This document shows positions 39,536-56,598 of a stretch of DNA of 64,000 nucleotides, piece after piece. A program made the translations under genes and the position numbers. The notes under the pieces were generated by a model. That model had not been told where the DNA came from and ran no database searches. It saw only the letters and a list, made by a program, of their open reading frames with translations. This stretch comes from an alpha proteobacterium SCGC AAA536-G10 (GTDB lineage Bacteria; Pseudomonadota; Alphaproteobacteria; Puniceispirillales; Marisalimonadaceae). Each line of letters begins with the position of its first letter. Position 1 is the stretch's first letter. The DNA lies in NCBI GenBank assembly GCA_000384615.1, contig ARQU01000003.1, forward strand, positions 104,751 to 168,750. The letters are read 5' to 3'.

Positions 39536-39612
39536 GGCGGAGTAGCTCAGCTGGTTAGAGCACCGGAATCATAATCCGGGTGTCGGGGGTTCAAGTCCCT
39601 CCTCCGCTACCA
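39536..39612 (+). tRNA. tRNA-Met (anticodon CAT; elongator type, Ile2-lysidine type not formally excluded)
   Basis: Hand-folded 77-nt cloverleaf. Acceptor GGCGGAG/CTCCGCT (G1-U72 wobble), D arm GCTC/GAGC, anticodon arm CCGGA-ATCATAA-TCCGG, variable loop GTGTC, T arm GGGGG-TTCAAGT-CCCTC, encoded CCA. It lacks the three consecutive G-C pairs at the base of the anticodon stem that mark initiator tRNAs. Confidence 0.9.
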
Positions 39613-39956: not shown

Positions 39957-40166
39957 ATGGCTCTATTTGAAAATAAAACATACGCAAATGGAAAAGAAAT
40001 TCTTAAATTTTTTGGAGTTACTTCGGAAACAATAAAAGATTGGATGAAGAATAAAGATTTTCCAAAACCTATTACACCAACATCTAAAACAAGATTGTGG
40101 AGATGTTCAGAAATAGAAGATTGGCTTATGGAAATGGAAATAAGACGTGATGATGGAGACCTATAA
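39957..40166 (+). CDS. alpA: AlpA-family helix-turn-helix regulator / excisionase
   Basis: 69 aa with the characteristic ...FPKPI.......W..SEIEDWL... pattern. A strong SD AAGGAGGG precedes it, and its stop overlaps the primase ATG (TAATG). Confidence 0.8.
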   Translation: MALFENKTYANGKEILKFFGVTSETIKDWMKNKDFPKPITPTSKTRLWRCSEIEDWLMEMEIRRDDGDL

Positions 40167-42436
40167 TGCTATCTTTACAGTCTTATGGAAATGCAGCTTT
40201 GAAGTTGTATGAAAATGGTTATATCCCAATTCCAATTAAGCCATTAACAAAAAGACCAATTATTTCTGATTGGCCAAATATTAAGAACGATTATAACCAA
40301 ATTGAAAATCTATCTTCAAAATACCCACATGCAGGTGTGGGTGTTCTATTAAATGATTTAATTGCATTTGATATAGATATTCTAGATGAAACATTATGCC
40401 TCTTGGTAAAAAAAATAATAACTAATGAACTTGGGGATACTATTGAAAGGATTGGCAAATTCCCAAAGAGAGCTCTTTTTTATAGAAGAGTTGGTAAGGA
40501 ATTTAGGAAACAATCCTCTAAGATTTTCAACCTTACAAAGGGTAAAGCTCAATTAGAAATTTTAGCAACTGGCAATCAGTGTATTGCTTTTGGGACACAT
40601 CCAGAAACAAAGCAACCTTATCAATGGATTGAAGACAGTCTCTTAGACATTCACATCCAAGATCTTCCTAGCGTAAATATCAAACAAGTAAAAAATATTA
40701 TTACCCAAACTGAAATACTTTTACGTAATCAGATTGAACCTAAAGAAGAAGTTAGACCAACTATAAAGACAATAATATATGAAACCAAAAAGGAAGAGAG
40801 TTTTAAGGATAAATCCTTAATACGGGGTGCTATAAAACACATAGATCCAGAAGATTATTATACTTGGATAAAGATAGGTTTCGCACTTAAAAAGTATTTT
40901 AAAGATGAAGGCTTTGAAATTTTTGATACTTGGTCAAAATATAAAATAGATGGCTCTCCATGCCCTAATTACTATAATAAAGACTTTAATAGAGAGAAAT
41001 GGAAGTCATTTAATCCAGAAAAAATAGATAAAAGAAACATATTCAAACTTGCAATACAAAATGGCTGGCAAGGAGGTAGTATTTTTGAAATTGAAAGTAA
41101 TACACACACCTCAGTAGCAAAATATCTAAAAAAGCAATTTGAATTAGACGGCCCAATACCAGTCTACGATGAGGGAGAACTTTGGAAATATAATGGTTTG
41201 TGTTGGAAGCTTGTCCCTGATAGTGACTTAAGACAGTTAGTCCATGAACTTGATCAAAAGAAAACCAAATCAGGTAAGTTGATCCATGTAAGCAAACAGT
41301 TTATAGATGGCTGCCTTCATGAATTAATGTCAATGTGTTCGGAGCCAAATTTTTTTGAAGATCAACCAATGGGAGTAAACTGTAAGAACGGTTTTTTGGA
41401 GATATCTTTCGATAAAAAACCACGGTTGTTGGATCACGATCCAAATCATAAGCAAAGATTTATCTTTGATGCCAAATGGGATGATGAAGATTTTATATTT
41501 TCTGGATATTTGAAGAAATTAATAAACGGTTGTTTTTTTGGTTTAGATGAAATTGTCAAAGGTCAATTGATTAGGCTCATTCAACAAATCTTAGGAGTAA
41601 GTATTACTGGAATTGCAACTAAACTTTCTACACCAATGTGTTTTGTCCTATATGGTCCTTCTGCAACTAATGGTAAATCTCAGATCTTAGAATTAGTACG
41701 GTCTCTTTTACCGAAAGATGCTTGTTCATCCATACCTCCTGCTGATTTAGGTAAAGAACAATATTTAATAGAATTAGTTGGTAAAATGGCTAATTTATCT
41801 GATGAGTTATCAGGTGCTAATGCAATACGTTCAGATAAACTTAAAGCAGTTGTAACGGGCGATACTGTAACGGGTAAAAGGGTTTATAAACCAGTATGTT
41901 TATTTAAACCAAATGCTATTCATATATTTGCAACAAATGTTCTTCCTAATTTTAAGGGAGGAGTAGATGAAGGAATTAATAGAAGGGTTAAAGTTATACC
42001 ATTTGATCGATCTATTCCCGTGAATGAGAGAGTACCAAGAATTGCTGAAAAAATTATTTTAAATGAAAAAGATCAATTATTTAAGTTCGCTGTAAAAGGG
42101 GCATTGGATGTTATCGAAAATGATGGCTTTATTATCCCAGATACAGTTGAATTGTCTACAGCTCAATGGTTTGAAGATTCAGACTCAATATTGTATTGGT
42201 TTAAGGAAAATCACCTTCTTGATTTATTGGACAAAAGTAAAAGTAAAAAGGTAGGCATTACAGAGGCATATTCAAAATTTAAAGCACACATGGAGGAAAT
42301 GGGAGAAGGACAATATGTTCCGACTAGAAACAGATTTGCTCAAAGAATTAGGCAATTGGTCAGAGATGATGTTGATCTTGAAATGGGTAGGGACAAATAT
42401 TCTAACTACATAAGATATAAGCAATTGGTGTATTAG
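40166..42436 (+). CDS. Bifunctional primase-polymerase / P4-D5-type SF3 helicase (phage/plasmid primase, P4 family)
   Basis: N-terminal Prim-Pol (YENGYIPIPIKPLTKRPI..W, IAFDIDI acidic motif, HPETKQPYQW) and a PriCT-2-like region (YYTWIKIGFALKKYF...FDTWS). The C-terminal P4-family helicase has Walker A GPSATNGKS, Walker B NLSDE and the INRRVKVIPF tail. Confidence 0.9.
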   Translation: MLSLQSYGNAALKLYENGYIPIPIKPLTKRPIISDWPNIKNDYNQIENLSSKYPHAGVGVLLNDLIAFDIDILDETLCLLVKKIITNELGDTIERIGKFPKRALFYRRVGKEFRKQSSKIFNLTKGKAQLEILATGNQCIAFGTHPETKQPYQWIEDSLLDIHIQDLPSVNIKQVKNIITQTEILLRNQIEPKEEVRPTIKTIIYETKKEESFKDKSLIRGAIKHIDPEDYYTWIKIGFALKKYFKDEGFEIFDTWSKYKIDGSPCPNYYNKDFNREKWKSFNPEKIDKRNIFKLAIQNGWQGGSIFEIESNTHTSVAKYLKKQFELDGPIPVYDEGELWKYNGLCWKLVPDSDLRQLVHELDQKKTKSGKLIHVSKQFIDGCLHELMSMCSEPNFFEDQPMGVNCKNGFLEISFDKKPRLLDHDPNHKQRFIFDAKWDDEDFIFSGYLKKLINGCFFGLDEIVKGQLIRLIQQILGVSITGIATKLSTPMCFVLYGPSATNGKSQILELVRSLLPKDACSSIPPADLGKEQYLIELVGKMANLSDELSGANAIRSDKLKAVVTGDTVTGKRVYKPVCLFKPNAIHIFATNVLPNFKGGVDEGINRRVKVIPFDRSIPVNERVPRIAEKIILNEKDQLFKFAVKGALDVIENDGFIIPDTVELSTAQWFEDSDSILYWFKENHLLDLLDKSKSKKVGITEAYSKFKAHMEEMGEGQYVPTRNRFAQRIRQLVRDDVDLEMGRDKYSNYIRYKQLVY

Positions 42437-46449: not shown

Positions 46450-46574
46450 AATATTTTTCTATTTATCATAACAATTTAACTAAATTATCTTTAATTTCAA
46501 ACAAATTTACCTAACAGTAATCTTACCAACGTAACTACCAACTCCAATCCATGCTCTATCGACTACGGTCAATG

Positions 46575-46667
46575 GGCAGACCACCCCTTGACCATTGTCA
46601 TAAGTTGATTAGGAATAGGGTGCAGTAACCCTTCGTTTAATATATTCCTAGCTCGTCAGGCTCATAA
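46575..46667 (+). repeat. Copy 1 of a ~95-nt imperfect direct repeat (integrase-arm-like blocks + tRNA-fMet-like core)
   Basis: Conserved blocks GGCAGACCACCC (46575-86), TTGATTAGG (46605-13), GGTGCA and TAGCTCGTCAGGCTCATAA (46649-67) recur in the same order and spacing at 52308-52398. Confidence 0.7.
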
Positions 46668-46711
46668 CCTTAAGGTCGTAGGTTCAAATCCTACCCCCCC
46701 CCCCGCAACCA
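46649..46711 (+). pseudogene. 3' two-thirds of an initiator-type tRNA-fMet gene (fragment, with expanded C tract)
   Basis: TAGCTCGTCAGGCTCATAACCTTAAGGTCGTAGGTTCAAATCCTAC-C(11)-GCAACCA matches the D-stem 3' strand, anticodon arm (CAT), T arm and acceptor 3' strand of bacterial initiator tRNA. No 5' acceptor or D-arm precedes it. The acceptor C run is 11 nt (46694-46704) instead of about 5. Confidence 0.75.
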
Positions 46712-46851
46712 ACTTATTTTATAAAATCAATAAGTTATACGCACATCAAGAACTTCGGTTTTTGGGGTTTTTTTGCGTTTTAAGCCTGATAAGGGTTTCA
46801 CCATGCCAACCATCGTGCCAACCAGTCGTCAGGTTTATTCCATTTTAATGA

Positions 46852-47133
46852 TCATAATTCATATTGTTTATACTTCTTAGCATGCTTAATAAGTTCTGCC
46901 TTATATTCTTCAGCAGAATTACAAACTTGTTCAAATTCTAAAAAATATAATTTTTGATTTGATAAAGCAAAGTATCCTTTAACTTGTAACTTCTCCATTT
47001 TTGCATTTTTGTCTTCAATGCCATGTTGAGCATTTAATGTTGATACAATTGAATTAGAATGGTCATCATTCATGTGTTCAATTATTCTATTAGATGCATT
47101 TATAAGCCAATTAGGTACTTTGCTATCATTCAT
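46852..47133 (-). CDS. DUF2470-family protein (HugZ C-terminal-like small domain)
   Basis: 93 aa with IIEHMNDDHSNSIVSTL, which matches the HMN.DH signature of DUF2470. Confidence 0.6.
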   Translation of the reverse strand: MNDSKVPNWLINASNRIIEHMNDDHSNSIVSTLNAQHGIEDKNAKMEKLQVKGYFALSNQKLYFLEFEQVCNSAEEYKAELIKHAKKYKQYEL

Positions 47134-47205
47134 TTAAATATCTCTAATTAATTATTACTTATCTATCATATCACGTATTTAAATAAATTCATTACGATAT
47201 AGCGA

Positions 47206-47598
47206 TCAAATTTTAAACAGAATATCCCAACCAGTAACAAGCACCATTAAGTTTAAAAATGCTATTATAGCAGGGGCGACGTACCCTTCAGCAGATGTCT
47301 TTACGCCATCAACAGAACCCCAATAACTATGGATAGTTTGAAAGCAAACAACAGCGCCAATACATGCTTGCACAAAACCATAGACAAATAGTAGCCAAGC
47401 ACCTTCGATAGAAGTGAATAAAGCAATAGCTAGTGTTACTGAAAAGCCGGCAGCAAAAGTACCAACAAGTCTTGTCATAATTGCACTACCTTCACCGAAG
47501 CCATATTTCTCAATGTACTTGCGTGTTTGGAAAATACATTGATAAGCATAAACCAAATTTCCAAATATTATAATTAGTATGAGTGAAAAAATTAGCAT
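47206..47598 (-). CDS. Integral membrane protein (4 predicted TM helices), unknown function
   Basis: 130 aa, almost entirely hydrophobic helices. No recognisable family. Confidence 0.5.
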   Translation of the reverse strand: MLIFSLILIIIFGNLVYAYQCIFQTRKYIEKYGFGEGSAIMTRLVGTFAAGFSVTLAIALFTSIEGAWLLFVYGFVQACIGAVVCFQTIHSYWGSVDGVKTSAEGYVAPAIIAFLNLMVLVTGWDILFKI

Positions 47599-47874
47599 GT
47601 TAGTTTAGATCTCCAACCCTTTCAATTAGGGGACAGATTTTCCATAAAATTAACACCCATCTAAAGCATAATCACAAAAGAATAACAAAAACTTGGCTGG
47701 GTAAATACTTAATATTAATATAGGCTTATTTAATTATTTGTAAATAAGTTGGTTTCAGTTGTTAAATTGGTTTAAAAGATACATTATATGTGTGAATAAT
47801 GATGGCTAAGGAAAATATCGAACATAAAACAGTAAGTTATTTTTTGATTGAAGTTTACTAAAATACATATTGTT

Positions 47875-49041
47875 CTAAAAAAATATATTTAACGTTAAAG
47901 TGATTGCATCATCATCCGATAGCTGCCCAAATGTAGACGTGGTTGTGCGTGCATTATAAAACTGGCTGGTCAATTTGACACTGGTGACATCATTGATCCG
48001 TCGCGACGCTTCCAAAGAGGCAAAGGACTGATCCGTTTTACGATCCAACGATGCCAAAAATAAAAAATTACTGTCTGCAATGTCATTAAATACAAGCCTT
48101 ACACCCGCAACACCAAATTGATTAGCTGCGGCCTGTGGACGGTCGTCATGTTGAATTTCACCAATCAAGCCAATATCCCATATTGTTTCAAATGCTCCGT
48201 AATAAGTATATTCAATCCCCGCAACAGCCGCCGCAAAATCATGAGCGCCAATTAAGCTGCTTTGGGTGCCATGAAGGCTTTCCCATTTGAGCAATGTAAC
48301 ATCGCCAGTATATTGAGCTTCAAATCCTATTGATTTTTGTAAAGCGTAATGTGGGTTTAATGCGCTTCCATTACTGTTGACAGACAAAATGGGATCACGA
48401 GCGGTACCGTAAAAAACACTTCCTGCTAGATCCCAATCTCCAGCAAAGCTAGACAAGCGTGCCGCAAAGTCATCTGCATCCTTGCCATTCTTACGCGCAT
48501 ATTGTGCAGAACTGACTGGAACTCCACTACTTGGATGCGCGTCACTATCATTAAATGTTTTTTCTCGAAAACGAGAAATATACCAAAGCTGCAGGTTACC
48601 AACATCTAGATAGCGTTCAGCAGATATAGATGGTGCCCCAAGTTTACCTGATTTACCATCATTTGCTGCAGCATCGGACTGATTAATAACATCAACAACA
48701 TTTTTACTTTCTGCCTTACCCCAAAATTCCTGACGATTTCCAACAAAAAAATCAAATCCGGCAAAGGGACTGCGAAAATAAGCCTGTCGAGCTTCAGTGA
48801 TCCGGCGACCACTATCTTTTTTATCCCCACGGAAAATGAATTCACCCACAATTCGACTTTTGTCAAAATCATGAAAGGCATCAATCTTTACTTCCACCGA
48901 GCGTCCTTCTGACGCCGTACCATCAGCATGATCAGGATAAAAATCTAGCCGTGATGAAAGCGTGCCATTAACTTTACCAGCAAAAGCCGGTTGTGTTAAC
49001 AAAAGGACAATAGCAAAGCAACGAGCATAATACGTAATCAT
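47875..49041 (-). CDS. Outer-membrane beta-barrel protein (third gene of the RND/LolA-like operon)
   Basis: Signal peptide (…TQPAFA-GK), alternating beta-strand pattern, C-terminal LTLNIFF with terminal Phe (OMP signature). A 4-nt overlap with the upstream LolA-like gene indicates an operon. Confidence 0.7.
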   Translation of the reverse strand: MITYYARCFAIVLLLTQPAFAGKVNGTLSSRLDFYPDHADGTASEGRSVEVKIDAFHDFDKSRIVGEFIFRGDKKDSGRRITEARQAYFRSPFAGFDFFVGNRQEFWGKAESKNVVDVINQSDAAANDGKSGKLGAPSISAERYLDVGNLQLWYISRFREKTFNDSDAHPSSGVPVSSAQYARKNGKDADDFAARLSSFAGDWDLAGSVFYGTARDPILSVNSNGSALNPHYALQKSIGFEAQYTGDVTLLKWESLHGTQSSLIGAHDFAAAVAGIEYTYYGAFETIWDIGLIGEIQHDDRPQAAANQFGVAGVRLVFNDIADSNFLFLASLDRKTDQSFASLEASRRINDVTSVKLTSQFYNARTTTSTFGQLSDDDAITLTLNIFF

Positions 49042-49823
49042 CGTGTCCGTTTCAATGTGGATTTTTCAAAATCACGTTCGGTCATACCGGTCTGAAACTT
49101 CCAATCGGCAAACACGAGTTCCGTTTTCTTGCCTGTCTGGTGATTAATCATAACCAAACGATTAGACCGCCAGAATTTATCTAGATATTGATTATAATCT
49201 TCATAGGTCAAGGTTTTCAAAAGTGCGTCTTTGCGGTCATAGAAATCAATTTTGTGAACGCGGTACTCAGCTTTATCCATCCAAACAATCTGGCGCTTAT
49301 AGCCACTTTTGCGATCAACCGGATCATATTCAACAACAAAACACTCAAGACCATTCAACTCTTCATCACGCAGATAATTATAGGTGTATTTTTCAACTTC
49401 CTGACTAGCGATATCTTCATACGAAAATTCACTACCCATAAAAGGACCTGCCTTATTTGACGATGCGATACGCTTAACGCGTTTCAGAGCTGGCAAATAT
49501 AGCCATTGGTCATCCGAATCAGCCTTTTTTGTGTGCGAAAGGAAAGCTGTGCCGCGCACATCACCCGGACTATCAAATATTACAAGAGACTTATCACCTT
49601 CATTATAACCCTCAAACGTTCTATTACGGATTGTACGTTCAGTTGATTGCCCATATTTGTCCATTAGGATCATTGTTATCTGTGCGGTTGAATCACCAAA
49701 CCCCTTGTCGCGGCTATCGGCTTCAATCGCAATCTCTAGTCCTTTTTTAGGCGAGGCAAATGCCGCTGTTATCATAACGGCAGTGGTAATAGCGACAAAC
49801 ATGGTTACAGTACCGAGTTTCAT
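49038..49823 (-). CDS. LolA-like outer-membrane lipoprotein-sorting family protein
   Basis: Track ORF extends to 49880, but the probable start is MKLGTVTMFVAI (49823), which gives a signal peptide. The conserved block DKSLVIFDSPGDVRGTAFL...DDQWLYLPALKRVKRIASSNKAGPFMGSEFSYEDI is typical of the LolA_like family. Confidence 0.8.
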   Translation of the reverse strand: MKLGTVTMFVAITTAVMITAAFASPKKGLEIAIEADSRDKGFGDSTAQITMILMDKYGQSTERTIRNRTFEGYNEGDKSLVIFDSPGDVRGTAFLSHTKKADSDDQWLYLPALKRVKRIASSNKAGPFMGSEFSYEDIASQEVEKYTYNYLRDEELNGLECFVVEYDPVDRKSGYKRQIVWMDKAEYRVHKIDFYDRKDALLKTLTYEDYNQYLDKFWRSNRLVMINHQTGKKTELVFADWKFQTGMTERDFEKSTLKRTR

Positions 49824-49851
49824 TTTAGTCTCCTTAGACAACATCATGAGC

Positions 49852-52182
49852 TTAAGCATTTTGTGGTGCTTCTTTAACACCTATTATTGGTGTGGTTTCT
49901 TTTTTATCCTTATCAAGGGCAATCAGCAAAGCAGGGAGCAAAGTCATATCGGCAATTAAAGCTATAACAAGGGCTATGCCTGTTAACATTGCCATATTGC
50001 TGTTCACGCCAAAGGTTGATTGAGCCAGAATAGCAAAACCAGCTGTTAGTATCAGAGTTGTAACAACGAGTGCCGTTCCAACACCTTTGAAAGCCGAAAT
50101 GACAGCATCATGCGCAGACAGTTTTAATTCGCGTCGAGCAATCTGATATTTGCTGAGAAAATGAACACTATCGTCAACCACAACGCCAAGCGCCATACCC
50201 GCAACAACAGCGACAGCCATATTGACCTGCCCCACAAGCAAACCCCAAAGGCCAAAGGCGAGTGCCGCAGGCAGCAAATTAGGTATCAAGCTGATGATTC
50301 CAAGCCGGACATCACGTAAGGCAATTAGAATAACACCACTAATCAGAAAAACAGCAATAAGGGTTCCTAGCAACATACTTTGAATATTACGTTCGGAAAT
50401 ATAGGCAAACATCACAGTAGGTCCGACAGCTGTCAGGTTAAAATCAAGCTCATCCGCAAGGTAGCTTTCAGCCCGAGCAATCCAGGCACGAAGTTCATTC
50501 GTGGTCATATCGTCTATTGTAACAATGACCTGTGTTGATGATTTGCTTATATCAAGTTGATTGTTCAAATCCAAACCGAATGGCAACGATAGCTCATATA
50601 AAAGTAGATATTGGGCGGCAAGTTCGCGCGTATCAGGCACCTGGTAAAAAGCTGGGTCACCAGCGTTCAGATCACGATTAAGACGCTTGAAGGTGTCCGA
50701 AATAGATTGTACATGTGTTACCACAGGCTCATTATTCGCCCAGGCGGTAAAATTAGATACTTTTTCAATAAAGACCGGATCGCTAATACCATTGGATTCG
50801 CCAGTAGGCAAACTAAATTGCACCTGATTGACACCAGTTAGATTGCGACTGATCCAGTCGGTATCTTGACGATACTGGACTGACTCGTCAAAATATTTAA
50901 CAAAGTCATCATTGATTTCATTGAGTGGAATAAGTGACAGAATACTAACTGAGATAATAACACTGGCAGTTAGAACCGACTTATAACGCGAAGCGACGTA
51001 GACACCAAGCTTTCCCATTTTATCATCAAGCCTTGCCAAGGTGGCTTTTGATTTCAGCGGAACGAAGCTAATGAGAATAGGTAATAGAACGATTGAAAAT
51101 ATCCAGGCAGCCATAACACCTATGGCTGTTATATTACCCAGGTCGTGAAACGGTGGGGAATCTGAAAAATTCATCGACAGAAAACCCAGAGCCGTTGTCA
51201 GACTAGTTAGAAAAATAGGTTTACCATTAACTCGTATACTGTAAAGCAAGCTGTCGCGTTGACTATGCCCTGCCCGCATCCGGTTGAACATACTTACCAA
51301 TAAATGGATTGCGTCGGCGACCGCAAGGGTGGTGATAATGGTTGGTGCACTGGCAGATGGAGGCGTTAGGCCAATGCCCATCCACCCACCAGCGCCCATA
51401 GCTACAATGATACTTGGCACAACAACAAACAGCACCAAAAATGTTGCCATTATCGATCTAAGCAATAAATAAGCGACAATTAAAATAACCAAGTACATCG
51501 CCGGCACCAATGTTGCCATGTCTAGCATTGATGATTCCAGAAACGCGTTATTCAGAAATATAACACCTCCCAAGCGAATTTTGACATTATGTTTAGCTTC
51601 GATCTCGGCAGCCATTTCGCGTGCAGCGGCTGCCACAATGGCAACCTCGTCAGCGCTTTTACCTGGCATCTGAATGGTTGCATTTACGGATGTGGCCCGA
51701 TGTTGCTTATCATGAATTTTTCCTTCCAGAGCCGGCTCAGTCGTACTCACACGATCAACCAAAGCTTGTTCATTAGCGTTCATTGACATTGCATCAGTAT
51801 ATAAATCTCGCACAATCAGATCATCACCTTCAACCTCGGTATGCTGATGATTTGACAGGCTATCAACTCGGATGGAAAAAGGAAGTTGCCATGCAATGTC
51901 AGTCAACTCCTCAACAGCGGCCAGCACCTCAGGCGCATTAGCTTTGCCTGAAATTGGATCAACAGCAAAGTTAACGTTATCTATCTTGGTATAGGTCTGC
52001 TGGATTTTTTCAAATGCTTTAAGTTGAGGATTTTCTTTTCCAAAAAACACTCTGTAATCATTGTCAAAATAAAGAAATTGGGTTCCTACGGCAGCAAGCA
52101 AGGATACAGCTGTAATAAGACCTAAAACTAGAAATCTATATTTAAGTATCCACTCGCCGTAAGAGCCATTTTGCTGTGACAT
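49852..52182 (-). CDS. RND-superfamily exporter (MMPL / HpnN-like, COG1033-type)
   Basis: 776 aa. Two 6-TM bundles are each preceded by a large periplasmic loop. The SSD-like TM region is LTSLTTALGFLSM and the second half contains GVVVDDSVHFL. G+C is high (32/60 at 50161-50220). Confidence 0.85.
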   Translation of the reverse strand: MSQQNGSYGEWILKYRFLVLGLITAVSLLAAVGTQFLYFDNDYRVFFGKENPQLKAFEKIQQTYTKIDNVNFAVDPISGKANAPEVLAAVEELTDIAWQLPFSIRVDSLSNHQHTEVEGDDLIVRDLYTDAMSMNANEQALVDRVSTTEPALEGKIHDKQHRATSVNATIQMPGKSADEVAIVAAAAREMAAEIEAKHNVKIRLGGVIFLNNAFLESSMLDMATLVPAMYLVILIVAYLLLRSIMATFLVLFVVVPSIIVAMGAGGWMGIGLTPPSASAPTIITTLAVADAIHLLVSMFNRMRAGHSQRDSLLYSIRVNGKPIFLTSLTTALGFLSMNFSDSPPFHDLGNITAIGVMAAWIFSIVLLPILISFVPLKSKATLARLDDKMGKLGVYVASRYKSVLTASVIISVSILSLIPLNEINDDFVKYFDESVQYRQDTDWISRNLTGVNQVQFSLPTGESNGISDPVFIEKVSNFTAWANNEPVVTHVQSISDTFKRLNRDLNAGDPAFYQVPDTRELAAQYLLLYELSLPFGLDLNNQLDISKSSTQVIVTIDDMTTNELRAWIARAESYLADELDFNLTAVGPTVMFAYISERNIQSMLLGTLIAVFLISGVILIALRDVRLGIISLIPNLLPAALAFGLWGLLVGQVNMAVAVVAGMALGVVVDDSVHFLSKYQIARRELKLSAHDAVISAFKGVGTALVVTTLILTAGFAILAQSTFGVNSNMAMLTGIALVIALIADMTLLPALLIALDKDKKETTPIIGVKEAPQNA

Positions 52183-52307
52183 TAAAGCACCTTTTAAAAT
52201 TACAAACTAAGTTGAAAGTATCGTTGATAAACAATATTCAAGAAATAAATACTTCAACACAAAAAAATACAAAAATAGCTTAATAAGTTAGATTTGCCAA
52301 ATAAATT

Positions 52308-52398
52308 GGCAGACCACCCTTTAACTAAATTTCAATCTTGATTAGGTAATTGGTGCATTTACAAATAAGAATGATTGATTAGCTCGTTAGGCTCATAA
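52308..52398 (+). repeat. Copy 2 of the imperfect direct repeat; tRNA-fMet-like core overlaps the integrase stop codon
   Basis: GGCAGACCACCC (52308-19), TTGATTAGG (52338-46), GGTGCA and TAGCTCGTTAGGCTCATAA (52380-98). The integrase TGA (52393-95, minus strand) lies inside the CTCATAA anticodon-loop equivalent. Confidence 0.7.
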
Positions 52399-53349
52399 TT
52401 TAGCATTAACTTGAACATATCTAAACAACTGACTAGCCGTCTTATGACCACTAATTGATGCAACTTCTGGTACGTTTAATCCTTTTTCAAACATCCTTGA
52501 TATAGCTTCATGCCTTAAATCATGAAAAGTAAAGTCAATTAAGTTTGCTCTATTACGAAGCCTTTCCCAAGATTGTCTTAAAGCTACATCAGTAATAGGG
52601 AACACATGGTCAGTGGTCCGTGGAACTTGGCTCAATATATCTATAGCTTTTTTAGTAAGAGGCACCCATCTTGAACTACCATTCTTTGTTAATGGTAATA
52701 AGACTCTTTGATTATCAATGCCAATATGTTCCCACTTCATGCCTAAAATCTCACTCCGTCTCATTCCTGTTTCAATAGCAAAATCGATAATGAGCCATAG
52801 ATACCAAACCTTTGTTTCAGAGGATGCTCTCTTTAATCTTTCATATTCACCAGGTTTTAATCTTCTTTCTCTTGGAGGATTATTTTTAGGCAGTCTTATT
52901 TTTTCAACTGGATTATCACCTAAGCTCCAACCCCATTCTATACATGCAATGTTCCATGCATGTCTGATCAAAACTAGATCATACTGACAAGCTCGAACTC
53001 CATCCTTAAGTCTTCTGTCCCTAAAAGCAGCCAGAATATGGGGGTGGAGTCTTTCTAAGGGTAAGTTCATAAGATCTTTTTCTTTAAGTAACCTTCTTAA
53101 CCTTTGATCCTCTGAAATGAACCCTCTTTTCTTTGGTGTAATTTCATATTTATATTTTGTGATAAGAGAATGAAGAGTGAATGAATGCTCTTTGATCCTT
53201 GACCATTGACCTGATTGCATTAAGACTTCTTGTTTTTTTGCCCATTTCTGAGCATCTAATTTACTATGAAATGATTTTGATATAGACCCTATGTGTTTGC
53301 TTCTTACTTGTGCTTGCCATAAGTTATTTCTTTTACGAAAACTAGCCAC
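52393..53349 (-). CDS. int: Tyrosine site-specific integrase (intact)
   Basis: 318 aa, GTG start after GGAGGG. N-terminal arm-binding-like MASFRKRNNLWQAQVR. Catalytic residues are in ETGMRRSE (Arg), HDLRHE (His-x-x-Arg), GHKT (His) and LFRYV (Tyr). Confidence 0.9.
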   Translation of the reverse strand: MASFRKRNNLWQAQVRSKHIGSISKSFHSKLDAQKWAKKQEVLMQSGQWSRIKEHSFTLHSLITKYKYEITPKKRGFISEDQRLRRLLKEKDLMNLPLERLHPHILAAFRDRRLKDGVRACQYDLVLIRHAWNIACIEWGWSLGDNPVEKIRLPKNNPPRERRLKPGEYERLKRASSETKVWYLWLIIDFAIETGMRRSEILGMKWEHIGIDNQRVLLPLTKNGSSRWVPLTKKAIDILSQVPRTTDHVFPITDVALRQSWERLRNRANLIDFTFHDLRHEAISRMFEKGLNVPEVASISGHKTASQLFRYVQVNAKL

Positions 53350-53430: not shown

Positions 53431-53488
53431 TTAGAGCACCGGAATCATAATCCGGGTGTCGGGGGTTCAAGTCCCTCCTCCGCTACCA
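53431..53488 (+). repeat. Direct repeat 2: exact copy of tRNA-Met positions 39555-39612 (att remnant)
   Basis: 58/58 identity, checked by hand, from the D-loop/D-stem 3' side through CCA. Confidence 0.95.
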
Positions 53489-53538
53489 AAAAATCAGTAA
53501 AATCAATAGTTTATAAAATCATTGCTCAGTGGTCTTGA

Positions 53539-53557
53539 GTTATACACAGTTATACAC
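53539..53557 (+). repeat. Tandem GTTATACAC motifs (candidate integrase arm-type sites)
   Basis: GTTATACAC at 53539-47 and 53549-57 (10-nt phasing), 50 nt after repeat 2. The same doublet follows repeat 3 (56533-41, 56543-51) and precedes it (56344-52, 56357-65). Confidence 0.5.
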
Positions 53558-53570
53558 TAAAATTAGGAAT

Positions 53571-53809
53571 ATGAATAAGAACCTTACAATACAAAGAATT
53601 AATGTATCAAAAGGTCTTTCTTTATATAAAACTTGGCGAAGTCCTTATTATTTTGCTCGAATTTGGGATCCTATTGAAAAAAAATATCGTTAGTAGGGGG
53701 AAGTTTAAGAGATATTCAGATGATGGTTGGTCATAGTTCTCTTCAAACTACTCAGAGATATATTGAAGCAGATAGTCAATCACAAAGGAAAGTAATTGAT
53801 TTGATATGA
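53571..53809 (+). pseudogene. Integrase remnant (N-terminal ~40 codons joined to C-terminal ~35 codons; internal deletion)
   Basis: MNKNLTIQRINVSKGLSLYKTWRSPYYFARIWDPIEKKYR-stop (53571-53693), then ...SLRDIQMMVGHSSLQTTQRYIEADSQSQRKVIDLI-stop (to 53809). The latter is the canonical tyrosine-recombinase C-terminus containing the catalytic RY. Confidence 0.75.
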
Positions 53810-53863
53810 CATAGTGAAAGGAGTAATTATGAGTTCTGTGCTCTTTTCATTACCAGTAAACTT

Positions 53864-54193
53864 TTAACTTAGAATGGTGTCTTCAAGAACTATCCCTCTA
53901 TTACTAAAAGTCTTAATAATCATATCTTCACTCTCCTTAGCATCAATTTCTTTCCAAATAGGAAGGCATGCTTTAAATGCTTTTTCATCTTTATATTCAA
54001 AAACAAAACCTAATCTTGATATATTCTCTTTGTTCCAAATTCTTAAACTTACAAAACGTAATAATCCTAATTTTTTTAATCTTTTGTAGTAAGAATCCTT
54101 TACTTGATCCCACCTTAAACTTGCAAGTTCTAACTCTTTTTCTGACATAAAATCTTGTGTGGTAAAATTAATTAACTTTGGATTAGTTCCCAT
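53864..54193 (-). CDS. Hypothetical protein
   Basis: 109-aa ORF with host-like AT-rich composition. No family recognised. Confidence 0.45.
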   Translation of the reverse strand: MGTNPKLINFTTQDFMSEKELELASLRWDQVKDSYYKRLKKLGLLRFVSLRIWNKENISRLGFVFEYKDEKAFKACLPIWKEIDAKESEDMIIKTFSNRGIVLEDTILS

Positions 54194-54554
54194 AAATTCC
54201 TCTTTTTCGACATTATCTAATTTATTAATGAAAAAATATAATATTAAGAGTTATTTTAATAGTATAATGTTTTCGGACTTACTTTATCTGTATAGTCATT
54301 GGATTTAAATATGATACTAACATTTTTCTTTGTTAATAATTGTTTGATTTAAATTAGAAATCTGGTCTGATAATTCTTTAATATCTAATTCTAATTTATT
54401 AAGTTTATCCTTAAACTCTTTTTCATAATACCTTTCACCATTACTTATTTTTAAATAATTTAATAAAATTACTATCTTTATTATTGAAAAATTATTATGA
54501 ATGCTAAATACATTTTATTTTTTTTTCATATTTTTTATCTTTAATTTAGAGTGG

Positions 54555-55016
54555 TTAAACTCCACTTTTTCTTGGGGGATCCTCTTTTATTTTATTAAAG
54601 ATTGGTGAGGTCTCAAATTTTGCATCTATTTCATTTTTTGAAAAGTATGCTTTTGATCTACAAAAAACTTCCCTCTTTATGTCATACCAAAATGTAGGTG
54701 GGTCAAATGTTCCTCCACCAATACCAGTCATATCTTTGAAAATGTCCGCATTCCAAAAAACTGATGTCCCGCATTCAACACAAAACTTTGTTGCCACTAA
54801 ATTTCCAGATTCCGTTGTATATTCAAATTTTTTTAAATCGCCAGACAATAATTCTACATTTACACTTTTAAAATAGACTGATATGCCAAATGCCGACCCA
54901 GTTCTTAATTGACAATATCTGCAGTGACAAACTGCAGAATGTTCTGGTTTTCCGATTGTTTTATAACGAACATTTCCACATGCACAACCTCCCTTATTTA
55001 ATATTTTATCTGACAT
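54555..55016 (-). CDS. GFA-family (glutathione-dependent formaldehyde-activating / CENP-V-like) zinc protein
   Basis: Zinc-binding Cys pattern GGCACGNVRY...CHCRYCQ...C.ECGT is typical of the GFA domain. Confidence 0.8.
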   Translation of the reverse strand: MSDKILNKGGCACGNVRYKTIGKPEHSAVCHCRYCQLRTGSAFGISVYFKSVNVELLSGDLKKFEYTTESGNLVATKFCVECGTSVFWNADIFKDMTGIGGGTFDPPTFWYDIKREVFCRSKAYFSKNEIDAKFETSPIFNKIKEDPPRKSGV

Positions 55017-55533
55017 AAACTTTCCCTCTAATTAAATAAATTACCTTACTTAAATTTGATTAATAAATATTTATAAGTAAATCATAAAATAAAATTGAAA
55101 TTAAAATGCTTAAATATTAACTAGTAAGGATTAGATCTACTAGTAAGATTTACAACTTTAAAAGAATTACAACCCAAATCAAAACTACTATTAGATACAA
55201 AAAGTTATAGACTTTAGATATTAGTCTTATAAACCATTGATTTATTATTAAAATAGATTTTGGAAAATATTGTCTTTTTTTAAATTAATCTAGAGTAATT
55301 TTATCTTCAACTTTAGTTGTTTTATCTAAATAGGAATTAAATAACTCATCTCTACTAGACTTTGCTTTTTGTGCTTTTTTTAATTTTTTCTCTAATTTTT
55401 ACTCTTGATTATCCATTATCTTAGTAGTGCTTATTCTTATCAATTCATAAATATATAATTTAAATAAATGAGATAAAAAGTAAAACAATTTAATGGAAGA
55501 AGTATATTGAGATAATTTATTAGTCAGAAATAT

Positions 55534-55953
55534 TTAGTAGATTAGTGTTTTGTCAGTACTTAAAACTAAATCTAATAAAGTTTTAGGTAATACTTTTCTG
55601 ATTTTTTTTCCTTTTAAGTCTAAATTTGTAACTCCTCTGTTTTCACATGACATAGAAGAGACGTAAATGGTTACCCCTTTTTTTGTAAGTACTGCCATAT
55701 GTTCTTTTAATTTGCCTGTTCCAAGACCTACTAAGTTATCAATAATGGTGTTTCTAACAAGTTGAACACCATCGCCGGATAAAAATATTTCCACCTTATG
55801 TCCTTCTTCAACAGCAGTTCTAGCAAGTAAAAAACCTAACATTGATTTAGAAACATTATTAGGACCAGACATAATATGAAATAAAATACTTTCCATTAAA
55901 ATAGTATCTTTAAAAAAATGAACATGATTTTGTATTGCAATCTTGCATTTCAT
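55534..55953 (-). CDS. DsrE/DsrF-like sulfur-relay family protein
   Basis: Probable start MESILF (55896). The pattern GHKVEIFLSGDGV...GVTIYVSSMSCENRGV resembles the DsrE/TusD fold with the conserved Cys. Confidence 0.5.
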   Translation of the reverse strand: MKCKIAIQNHVHFFKDTILMESILFHIMSGPNNVSKSMLGFLLARTAVEEGHKVEIFLSGDGVQLVRNTIIDNLVGLGTGKLKEHMAVLTKKGVTIYVSSMSCENRGVTNLDLKGKKIRKVLPKTLLDLVLSTDKTLIY

Positions 55954-56422
55954 TTTTATTAAAATAATTTTAAATAAAAGTATTTTTTAGAAAAAGATTA
56001 TAAAATTAAAAATTTACTTATGTTAATTAGAAATATGTTAAAAATTTAATCAATAATTTTAATTCAATTTAATACATTTATTAAATCAAATTAATATTCT
56101 AATGCGTTATCAATGTTCTATTAATTTATTTAAGAATCGGGTTAACGTAATGGATTAGACTTTATCAGAAACAAACATTCATAAATACTATTAGTAAACA
56201 TTTAAGGACTACTCAGTATATATAAAAACTTATATTGATAGACTATGAACACCTATTCAAACCACTATAGAAAAGAGTTTAAATGAACCTAAAACGAAAG
56301 ATAAATCTATTAGAAAAATTTAAAGAAAAAATAGACACAAAAAGTTATACACAAGAGTTATACACTTTAAATATTAATCATATAAACTATTGATATTAAT
56401 GATAAATTATATTTAGGAAAAG

Positions 56423-56470
56423 GGAATCATAATCCGGGTGTCGGGGGTTCAAGTCCCTCCTCCGCTACCA
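56423..56470 (+). repeat. Direct repeat 3: exact copy of tRNA-Met positions 39565-39612 (att remnant)
   Basis: 48/48 identity, checked by hand, from the anticodon stem through CCA. Confidence 0.95.
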
Positions 56471-56598
56471 ATAATATCAATAAAATCAATCGTTTGCAAG
56501 GTTTCAAAATAGTCTTGAATTTCTATACTTGAGTTATACACAGTTATACAGTAAAATACAGGACTATCTCTGTAAACAAAATCACACAAAGAATACAG

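Follow-up and report, generated by a model that had tools for sequence, protein, structure and literature searches.

Introduction

The described systems closest to the locus analyzed here are tycheposon-like islands and accretions of the type called cis-mobilizable elements (CIMEs). In the preprint passages considered here, tycheposons are tRNA-targeting elements of streamlined marine bacteria that carry a tyrosine recombinase, a primase or replication module, and cargo; they stack in tandem with partial tRNAs between them and leave fragmented integrases behind (Hackl et al., bioRxiv 10.1101/2020.12.28.424599). CIMEs (Pavlovic 2004; Bellanger 2011; reviewed in PMC5704250) appear in the relevant parts of the review as units without integration genes that keep both attachment sites (attL and attR) and lie in tandem at one att site. 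They can be mobilized by the integrase of a neighboring or incoming element and are viewed there as decayed integrative and conjugative or integrative and mobilizable elements (ICEs or IMEs). Here, we describe a cargo unit of this general kind, cassette E, which abuts the gene of a tyrosine recombinase, IntW, within a tRNA-Met island of the alphaproteobacterium SCGC AAA536-G10. The analyzed stretch of 64,000 nucleotides (the window) is contig C3:104751-168750 of an assembly of 2.16 Mb in 148 contigs.

Streamlined ocean bacteria have large flexible gene pools, and the movement of genes between them is poorly understood. Our comparisons indicate that window positions 46655-52398 very probably constitute an integrase-less cargo cassette inserted site-specifically into a copy of a tRNA-fMet (initiator tRNA) core at the integrase stop codon, the two repeats around it being its junctions. 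Judged from sequence, we regard as established that the unit exists with these ends and also occurs elsewhere, that an empty site is preserved, and that different cassettes have used this site repeatedly; that a tyrosine integrase performs the exchange, and which one, we infer. On these comparisons, the locus appears to be a live cassette-shuffling system rather than the fossil from an earlier host that an original prediction, made from the window alone, had seen in it.

By gene content, the island resembles tycheposons, the work on which is said to have been published later in Cell: it holds an integrase, a Prim-Pol/PriCT-2/D5_N primase, cargo, three tRNA-Met repeats, and an integrase remnant. 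However, tycheposons were described in Prochlorococcus, and the passages considered from the preprint mention neither the SAR116 cluster, to which the relatives discussed below belong, nor an att core in an integrase stop codon, nor arm-complete integrase-free cassettes docking inside another element. Cassette E and 30 further cassettes from arrays behind initiator tRNA genes fit the description of CIMEs and accretion, but the array cassettes lack integrase remnants and have complete, conserved arms. Moreover, E is 99.2% identical in two species with about 75% identical core DNA, which suggests active horizontal movement and not local decay. Two features were not found described in the tycheposon and CIME passages: an att core in an integrase stop codon as a secondary landing site, and arm-complete integrase-free cassettes common to that site and to the tRNA-fMet gene at the end of the ribosomal RNA (rrn) operon. 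Site-specific integration of cargo islands at a single-copy small-RNA gene, ssrA, is also described in Dehalococcoides (PMC3146451); there, however, the target is the tmRNA instead of the initiator tRNA, and the parts of that article considered here give no hint of a secondary site inside another element.

Cassette E begins and ends within two copies of a tRNA-fMet core

The 19-mer TAGCTCGTYAGGCTCATAA occurs exactly twice in the window, at 46649-46667 and 52380-52398 (0 expected in 100 shuffles), and GGCAGACCACCC likewise occurs exactly twice, at 46575 and 52308 (0.04 expected). Upstream of both copies of the 19-mer, about 95 nt align collinearly at only ~70% identity, and the similarity between the copies stops at 52398. 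The original prediction had noticed the recurring 19 nt, the accompanying upstream block, and the end of similarity at the integrase TGA, and our analysis confirmed all three. It was also right that the integrase stop lies in the equivalent of the anticodon loop: on the opposite strand the TGA reads TCA (52393-52395), and this triplet shares positions with the CAT anticodon equivalent (52394-52396) in CTCATAA. The features of the unit and its surroundings are as follows.

46495-46632, plus strand: X1, the extended island-side copy of repeat X, a P-arm-like module
46633-46648, plus strand: spacer TTCGTTTAATATATTC(C) between X1 and core, identical to the spacer between X and core in loci L013 and L017
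46649-46667, plus strand: core copy 1 (O_f), equivalent to positions 21-39 of the tRNA-fMet gene; contains the left crossover region of E
46668-46711, plus strand: cassette-borne tRNA-fMet positions 40-77, with a G-to-T change in the anticodon stem and a C-run grown from 5 to 11
46712-46836, plus strand: P' arm of E, near-identical by eye to the sequence 3' of the intact tRNA-fMet in G014 (L054)
46852-52182, minus strand: cargo of E as a whole, without a recombinase
52283-52379, plus strand: X2, a diverged X-like block and the P arm of E; inside the block 99.2% identical to G011, ~70% identical to X1
52380-52398, plus strand: core copy 2 (O_f), TAGCTCGTTAGGCTCATAA; right crossover region of E, overlapping the integrase stop at 52393-52395
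52393-53349, minus strand: IntW, tyrosine recombinase of 318 amino acids (PF00589, E=1e-26; R, HxxR, H, and Y motifs visible)

The limits of the unit were given by G011, a genome of another species; most of the genomes that we compared are incomplete single-cell assemblies. Window 46655-52398 is 99.2% identical to G011:C1 over 5744 nt, and the identity begins at 46655 and ends at 52398, that is, inside the 13- to 19-nt core and not in X. In G011, the unit sits between two tRNA-fMet fragments of a cassette array. On its left lies the P arm of another cassette, ending in ...GAGTCAGGCTCATAA, while on its right X2 leads into TAGCTCGTTAGGCTAATAA and then CCTGAAGGTCG, which are the tRNA 3' part and the next P' arm. 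In the window, the right end instead reads TAGCTCGTTAGGCTCATAA followed by TTTAGCATTAAC, the integrase 3' end. Because the tRNA 3' part and not the integrase comes next in G011, X2 and the 19-mer are parts of the cassette. Each of the two window copies is a hybrid junction. Thus, copy 2 is not the uninterrupted attP that had been proposed, and when it was tested as an attP with both arms from the integrase-bearing element it failed, its P arm being part of E. Cassette E keeps both att junctions, with cores at 46649-46667 and 52380-52398 and with P' and P arms. Upstream of tRNA-Met, this genome and G011 share only 75% identity in their core DNA; given the 99.2% identity of E, the cassette has moved recently.

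Copy 1 continues beyond the core. The intact tRNA-fMet of same-genus genomes is CGCGGGGTGGAGCAGCCCGGTAGCTCGTCAGGCTCATAACCTGAAGGTCGTAGGTTCAAATCCTACCCCCGCAACCA, and window 46649-46711 corresponds to its positions 21-77, so that the 63-nt fragment is indeed, as had been recognized, the 3' two-thirds of this gene. Core copy 1 takes in one strand each of the D stem (3') and the anticodon stem (5'), along with the loop CTCATAA (46661-46667). Only positions 21-77 being there, the fragment failed the test for a complete cloverleaf, which requires the acceptor 5' strand and a full D arm; ARAGORN called no gene at 46649-46711, and Rfam returned a partial tRNA at 24.6 bits, under the 29-bit gathering score. 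Alignment with the genus tRNA-fMet, a check suggested with the original prediction, revealed only one substitution (the G-to-T change in the anticodon stem) and a 6-nt expansion of the C-run (11 versus 5); the acceptor strand and C-run are unexpanded in the G011 copy of the cassette. As the fragment matches the genus' own tRNA-fMet, nothing indicates a foreign host.

The cassette ends match those of arrays behind the initiator tRNA gene

Copy 1 had been taken for an attR carried over from a previous host. Instead, tRNA-fMet cassettes of the genus have this tRNA part, with the ~125-nt arm downstream of it, as their standard left end. The tRNA-fMet fragment with its flank was found in 33 of 41 genomes searched (40 relatives and our own), often in two to six copies each. 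In same-genus genomes, the rrn operon region closes with the intact tRNA-fMet gene, behind which lie tandem cassettes (array loci L053-L058, L099, and L108-L122). These end in a fragment that runs from the 5' strand of the anticodon stem (GTCAGGCTCATAA...) to CCA; each cassette restores the tRNA 3' part and brings its own hairpin and T-run. After each fragment comes a conserved P' arm with an IHF (integration host factor) consensus match, the hairpin and T-run, GTTTTAAGCCTGATAA, paired direct 9-mers, and GTTCGTCAGGTTTAT. The IHF matches, AATCAATAACTTA in our own reading of WATCAANNNNTTR, are candidate sites, and the 9-mer pair differs between cassette families. In total, 30 cassettes were delimited across 21 loci in 17 genomes; they measure 1.27-8.35 kb (median, 3.26 kb) and fall into at least five P-arm families. 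No integrase remnants were seen in the array cassettes, and no autonomous fMet element was found.

By eye, the P' arm of E is near-identical to the arms after every fMet fragment in the arrays. It contains the following elements.

46724-46737, plus strand: IHF-consensus-like site AAATCAATAAGTTA
about 46741-46776, plus strand: hairpin and T-run, followed by GTTTTAAGCCTGATAA
46802-46825, plus strand: two direct 9-mers TGCCAACCA, followed by GTCGTCAGGTTTAT

A terminator scan did not call the hairpin in the window copy of the arm, and the genome contains no further TGCCAACCA doublet beside an integrase.

Two more tRNA-fMet 3' fragments, 1.5 kb apart, lie at the end of contig C21 (71-155 and 1579-1650, minus strand) and match the window copy even over ~25 nt past the CCA. 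Apart from these and the window fragment, no tRNA-fMet was found in our assembly, intact copies included; the rrn operon is likewise missing and was probably not assembled. For annotators, the arrays carry a caution: partial tRNAs within islands can be cassette ends and not relics of former hosts.

Different cassettes occupy the core at the integrase stop codon

The original prediction also held the site at the integrase 3' end to be a genuine recombination core modeled on the tRNA-fMet anticodon arm. This was borne out; the core is kept in orthologs, and homology breaks there. Among 11 relative loci that retain the integrase 3' end, nine have TTATGAGCC or a one-base variant at the stop codon, the exceptions being L012 and L016. 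Most IntW orthologs and remnants end in ...GCTAGGTTATGAGCCTGAC(G), the complement of (CG)TCAGG-CTCATAA-CCT, and homology among the relatives breaks within window 52370-52389. Past the core, L009, L010, and L015 carry a P arm of the type TTGGCAGAAC...GAGTCAGG, and L017 has one of the TTTAGCTAT-doublet type; different cassette P arms and cargo are thereby represented at the same integrase stop codon in these loci. Downstream of the integrase, L010 and L017 have an X with an fMet fragment at a distance of 6-9 kb; in L023, such a pair is ~5 kb away from a 3' remnant of an integrase.

L013 has X, the spacer TTTAATATATTCC, the core, and the integrase in direct succession. When the flanks of E were joined in silico (window 46520-46667 plus 52399-52520), the product was collinear with L013, with 86.8% identity over 228 nt spanning the junction. 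Because of this collinearity, L013 represents the unoccupied site, X1-core-integrase.

Other islands repeatedly contain 3' remnants of IntW, ~140-160 nt long, that have kept the fMet-like core as their end; their positions are as follows.

C1:109948-110088 of our own genome, plus strand
L019, 943-1099
L020, 10001-10148
L022 and L023, 10042-10179

Their cut points are similar in all five places; in C1, L019, and L020 the remnant lies directly beside the left boundary of X, and in L022 and L023 it lies ~470 nt downstream of tRNA-Ser.

IntW and the tRNA-Met island

A search with IntW recovered single-cell genomes titled "SAR116 cluster alpha proteobacterium," with orthologs of 82-94% identity, and the chromosomal locus and island backbone of the window recur in G004 and G015. 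IntW scored under every NCBIfam cut-off. Its identity as an integron integrase was rejected, as it reached only 15.4 bits against TIGR02249, the cut-off of which is 265 bits. No relatives of IntW were found in viral contigs. Around the integrase, we identified the following features of the island and of a second unit beside it.

39536-39612, plus strand: intact tRNA-Met (CAT; ARAGORN, Rfam tRNA 67 bits), elongator type by reading; attL side of the integrase-bearing island
40166-42436: primase open reading frame (ORF) with Prim-Pol, PriCT_2, D5_N, and DUF5906 matches; replication module of the island
53431-53493, plus strand: second copy of the tRNA-Met 3' repeat, 98% identical; attR side of the island, 82 nt from the IntW start codon
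53696-53776, plus strand: C-terminal integrase remnant of 43 amino acids (PF00589 positions 144-170, 19 bits) in the second unit
56413-56475, plus strand: third copy of the tRNA-Met 3' repeat, 87% identical; closes the second unit, 53494-56412

The repeat family (D1) consists of the 3' 58-63 nt of the gene at 39536-39612, repeated at 53431 and 56413, and the second unit between repeats 2 and 3 is 3 kb long and integrase-less. The island also contains an alpA-sized ORF. Since tRNA-Met 3' repeats bound the island and also lie ~80 nt upstream of the integrases of relatives (L009, L010, L011, L013, L015, and L017), the integration site of IntW itself is most likely the elongator tRNA-Met. More distant paralogs (35-42% identity) show the order intact tRNA (Arg, Pro, or Val), IHF-like site, paired 9-mers, and integrase, and their 3' ends carry no mimic of a tRNA.

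A match to the IHF consensus ATCAA-N4-TTR was present 10-25 nt past nearly every tRNA-derived repeat, whichever the tRNA. Such matches lie at window 46724-46737, 53509-53522, and 56482-56495, as well as after tRNA-Arg, tRNA-Pro, and tRNA-Val in the paralog loci, and they agree with the TAAAATCAAT motif.

A candidate exchange mechanism and the role of IntW

In attP sites of the lambda type, the 3' end of int lies in the P' arm. A classification of integration into tRNA genes that includes an anticodon-loop class was reportedly published by Williams in 2002. The window sites resemble such systems in that their core corresponds to an anticodon stem-loop, from which the identity block extends as far as the 3' end of the tRNA; they also have an IHF-like site and pairs of repeats in the arms, and the integrase reads toward the core. 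They differ at the integrase end: no tRNA 3' part follows there, and the stop codon falls within what corresponds to the anticodon loop. This site therefore cannot restore a tRNA and would act as a secondary target and not as the element's own attP.

In the mechanism that we propose, cassette E has a lambda-style attP composed of the P arm (X2), the core (the fMet anticodon arm), the rest of the tRNA, and the P' arm. In this SAR116 genus, the usual place of such cassettes is a tandem array downstream of the initiator tRNA gene, where the rRNA operon ends. The elongator tRNA-Met island offers them a second landing site, a mimic of the fMet anticodon stem-loop that covers the last codons and the stop of the integrase and is preceded by X1. 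Between the attP of E and the integrase-end site, strands would have been exchanged within or beside the loop CTCATAA, yielding X1-core-tRNA3'-P' (copy 1) and X2-core-integrase (copy 2).

Tentatively, and at rather low probability, the mimic may be a dedicated cargo-capture site that loads array cassettes onto the mobile tRNA-Met island, possibly run by the island's own integrase, which would then act on two distinct cores, each derived from a different tRNA. If this were true, it would amount to an integron-like acquisition platform built from lambda-type att parts, with a vehicle that moves cassettes between cells. The likeness to integrons is a functional analogy only, namely a recombinase gene with an adjacent site that gathers promoter-independent, recombinase-less cassettes. 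In contrast to integrons, the site is at the 3' end of the IntW gene and not upstream of it, and the cassettes are 1.27-8.35 kb long, with lambda-like arms and tRNA-derived core ends in place of attC hairpins; E is moreover multi-gene. That IntW is the recombinase of the fMet cassettes is possible but doubtful.

Several observations weigh against our interpretation. A tblastn search with eight tyrosine recombinases of our own genome detected no integrase in the 21 array loci. Only 7 of 45 same-genus genomes had IntW-type genes (at least 77% identity), two of them as pseudogenes (G022:C3:4731-5570, with two in-frame stops, and G053:C6:5072-5908, with five). A closed genome has an fMet cassette and no IntW-family gene. 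The 9-mers of the cassette arms are unlike the G(T/A)CACA-type doublets beside IntW-family genes. X1 and the core at the integrase end could be the right end of an older insertion and not a dedicated site. Last, the run of 11 C (window 46692-46704) could reflect real slippage or an artifact of amplification or assembly.

The alternative that fares best, although we consider it unlikely, is that IntW serves two sites, integrating the island into the elongator tRNA-Met and using X1-core at its own 3' end as an attI-like capture site for fMet cassettes. In most orthologs the core is physically coupled to IntW, and at least four occupancy states of the integrase-end site were found. TCATAA is common to the anticodon loops of Met and fMet, an IHF-like site follows both kinds of tRNA repeat, and a TGGCAG motif occurs in both kinds of P arm. 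Yet the half-sites of the cores differ (ACCGGAA/TCCGGGT versus GTCAGGC/CCTGAAG), as do the cassette-arm 9-mers and those beside IntW-family genes; most array-bearing genomes are without IntW, and the core would persist after every exchange without any selection.

Repeat X adjoins the attachment sites

The upstream block that recurs with the core belongs to a repeat, X. An alignment of 32 copies showed two highly conserved blocks around a 13-nt variable patch, with a TACCAAC/ACCAAC doublet on the left. In X1 the order is TTTCAAACAAATTTAC, a direct TACCAAC doublet, block A (...GGACTACGGTCAATGGGCAGACCACCCC), the 13-nt variable patch, and block B (TTGATTAGGAAtAGGGTGCAGTAACCC). Our genome contains six copies; those elsewhere lie at C1:105998-106112, C1:109822-109922, both ends of C28, and the end of C18, contigs breaking at X. 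X was found in 21 of 25 same-genus genomes (20 relatives and our own, one to nine copies each) and in none of 16 genomes of other genera. "Split" copies in L010 are deletion or truncation variants.

The sequence after X falls into four classes, three of which have paired 9-mers and an IHF-like site. One of these three, located in the tRNA-Ser island of contig C1, ends with the final 11-12 nt of tRNA-Ser, and the fourth continues with the spacer and a tRNA-fMet part or with the spacer, core, and integrase. To account for the motif after class-1 X, a tRNA ending in ...CCCTCCGCCA was sought, and none is present in our assembly. Together, these contexts suggest that X is a conserved P-arm or island-end DNA module. 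A dispersed repeat family unrelated to integration had been named as what would overturn the original prediction; the ~95-nt block does belong to a dispersed family, but this family adjoins att sites and so is not unrelated to integration.

That X is a structured noncoding RNA, or a mobile promoter or leader of downstream minus-strand operons, with only an incidental link to att sites, appears improbable. X is G+C-rich within an A+T-rich genome, and in four of five scorable copies of our genome an ORF starts 100-127 nt downstream of the reverse complement of X. As an RNA family, however, X had no Rfam match: at E<=1, only a partial tRNA match to the fMet fragment was returned. RNAalifold gave a consensus of only -4.66 kcal/mol. 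In many copies, the right arm of the apparent hairpin GGTCAATGG/CCATTGACC is lost with no compensating change, which also led us to reject X as a lox-like 13-8-13 core. Furthermore, X regularly precedes paired 9-mers, an IHF-like site, and a tRNA-derived repeat (fMet or Ser).

Even less probable is an origin of the arrangement by homologous exchange or duplication involving dispersed X copies rather than by site-specific recombination. X is multi-copy and contigs break there, and in the tRNA-Ser island of G003 the cargo of E is found with other arms, its homology ending at ...AAATAAATAGGCAGA, within an X-like motif. As this island shows, homologous module shuffling does occur, and the end of homology suggests that modules were exchanged at the X-like motif. 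At the present locus, X1 and X2 are only ~70% identical, the identity with G011 starts and stops inside the core and not in X, and X-free cassettes use the same integrase-end core in relatives.

Cargo of cassette E

Five ORFs make up the cargo.

46852-47133, minus strand: DUF2470 protein
47206-47598, minus strand: membrane protein of 130 amino acids
47875-49041, minus strand: putative outer-membrane protein (OMP) of 388 amino acids; G+C 0.41-0.43
49038-49880, minus strand: LolA-like/DUF1329 protein; G+C 0.41-0.43
49852-52182, minus strand: RND/MMPL transporter of the HAE3 type; G+C 0.41-0.43

No recombinase was detected in E by Pfam (five ORFs) or NCBIfam (the RND transporter), the only matches being DUF2470, LolA-like/DUF1329, and RND.

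The G+C content of the window is 0.315 (~31%). The OMP-LolA-like-RND operon (window 47858-52182) has 88-91% nucleotide identity to loci of ~45% G+C in other SAR116 genera, L094 (G031) and L095 (G039), which suggests a recent transfer of the operon between genera. Of the original proposal that the element is chimeric with a history in a higher-G+C genome, the chimeric nature is thus supported, and the higher-G+C history stands for the cargo operon but not for the att fragment: the imported look appears limited to the OMP-LolA-RND cargo, with higher-G+C SAR116 relatives as its likely source. The least probable of all readings, that copy 2 is the intact attP of a tRNA-fMet-specific integrase and copy 1 a fossil attR from a higher-G+C host, can draw on the fMet anticodon-arm core kept at the stop codon of most IntW orthologs, on the lambda-type layout X-core-integrase with the integrase reading toward the core, and on cargo G+C above that of the genome, but it conflicts with the cassette-borne X2 and 19-mer, which in G011 precede the tRNA 3' part, with a fragment and 125-nt downstream arm native to the genus, and with an island bounded by elongator tRNA-Met repeats, and it would leave the one initiator tRNA gene that was detected, the last of the rrn operon, split by an attP that lacks the tRNA 3' part.

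One cargo operon could thus be traced in three states, in three different species: behind the initiator tRNA, docked in the tRNA-Met island (99%), and in a tRNA-Ser island. These provide concrete att sites and a defined substrate for the study of integrase-less cargo exchange in SAR116. In the third state, the cargo of E occupies positions 6592-12760 of L100 (G003:C3), where it is 92% identical.

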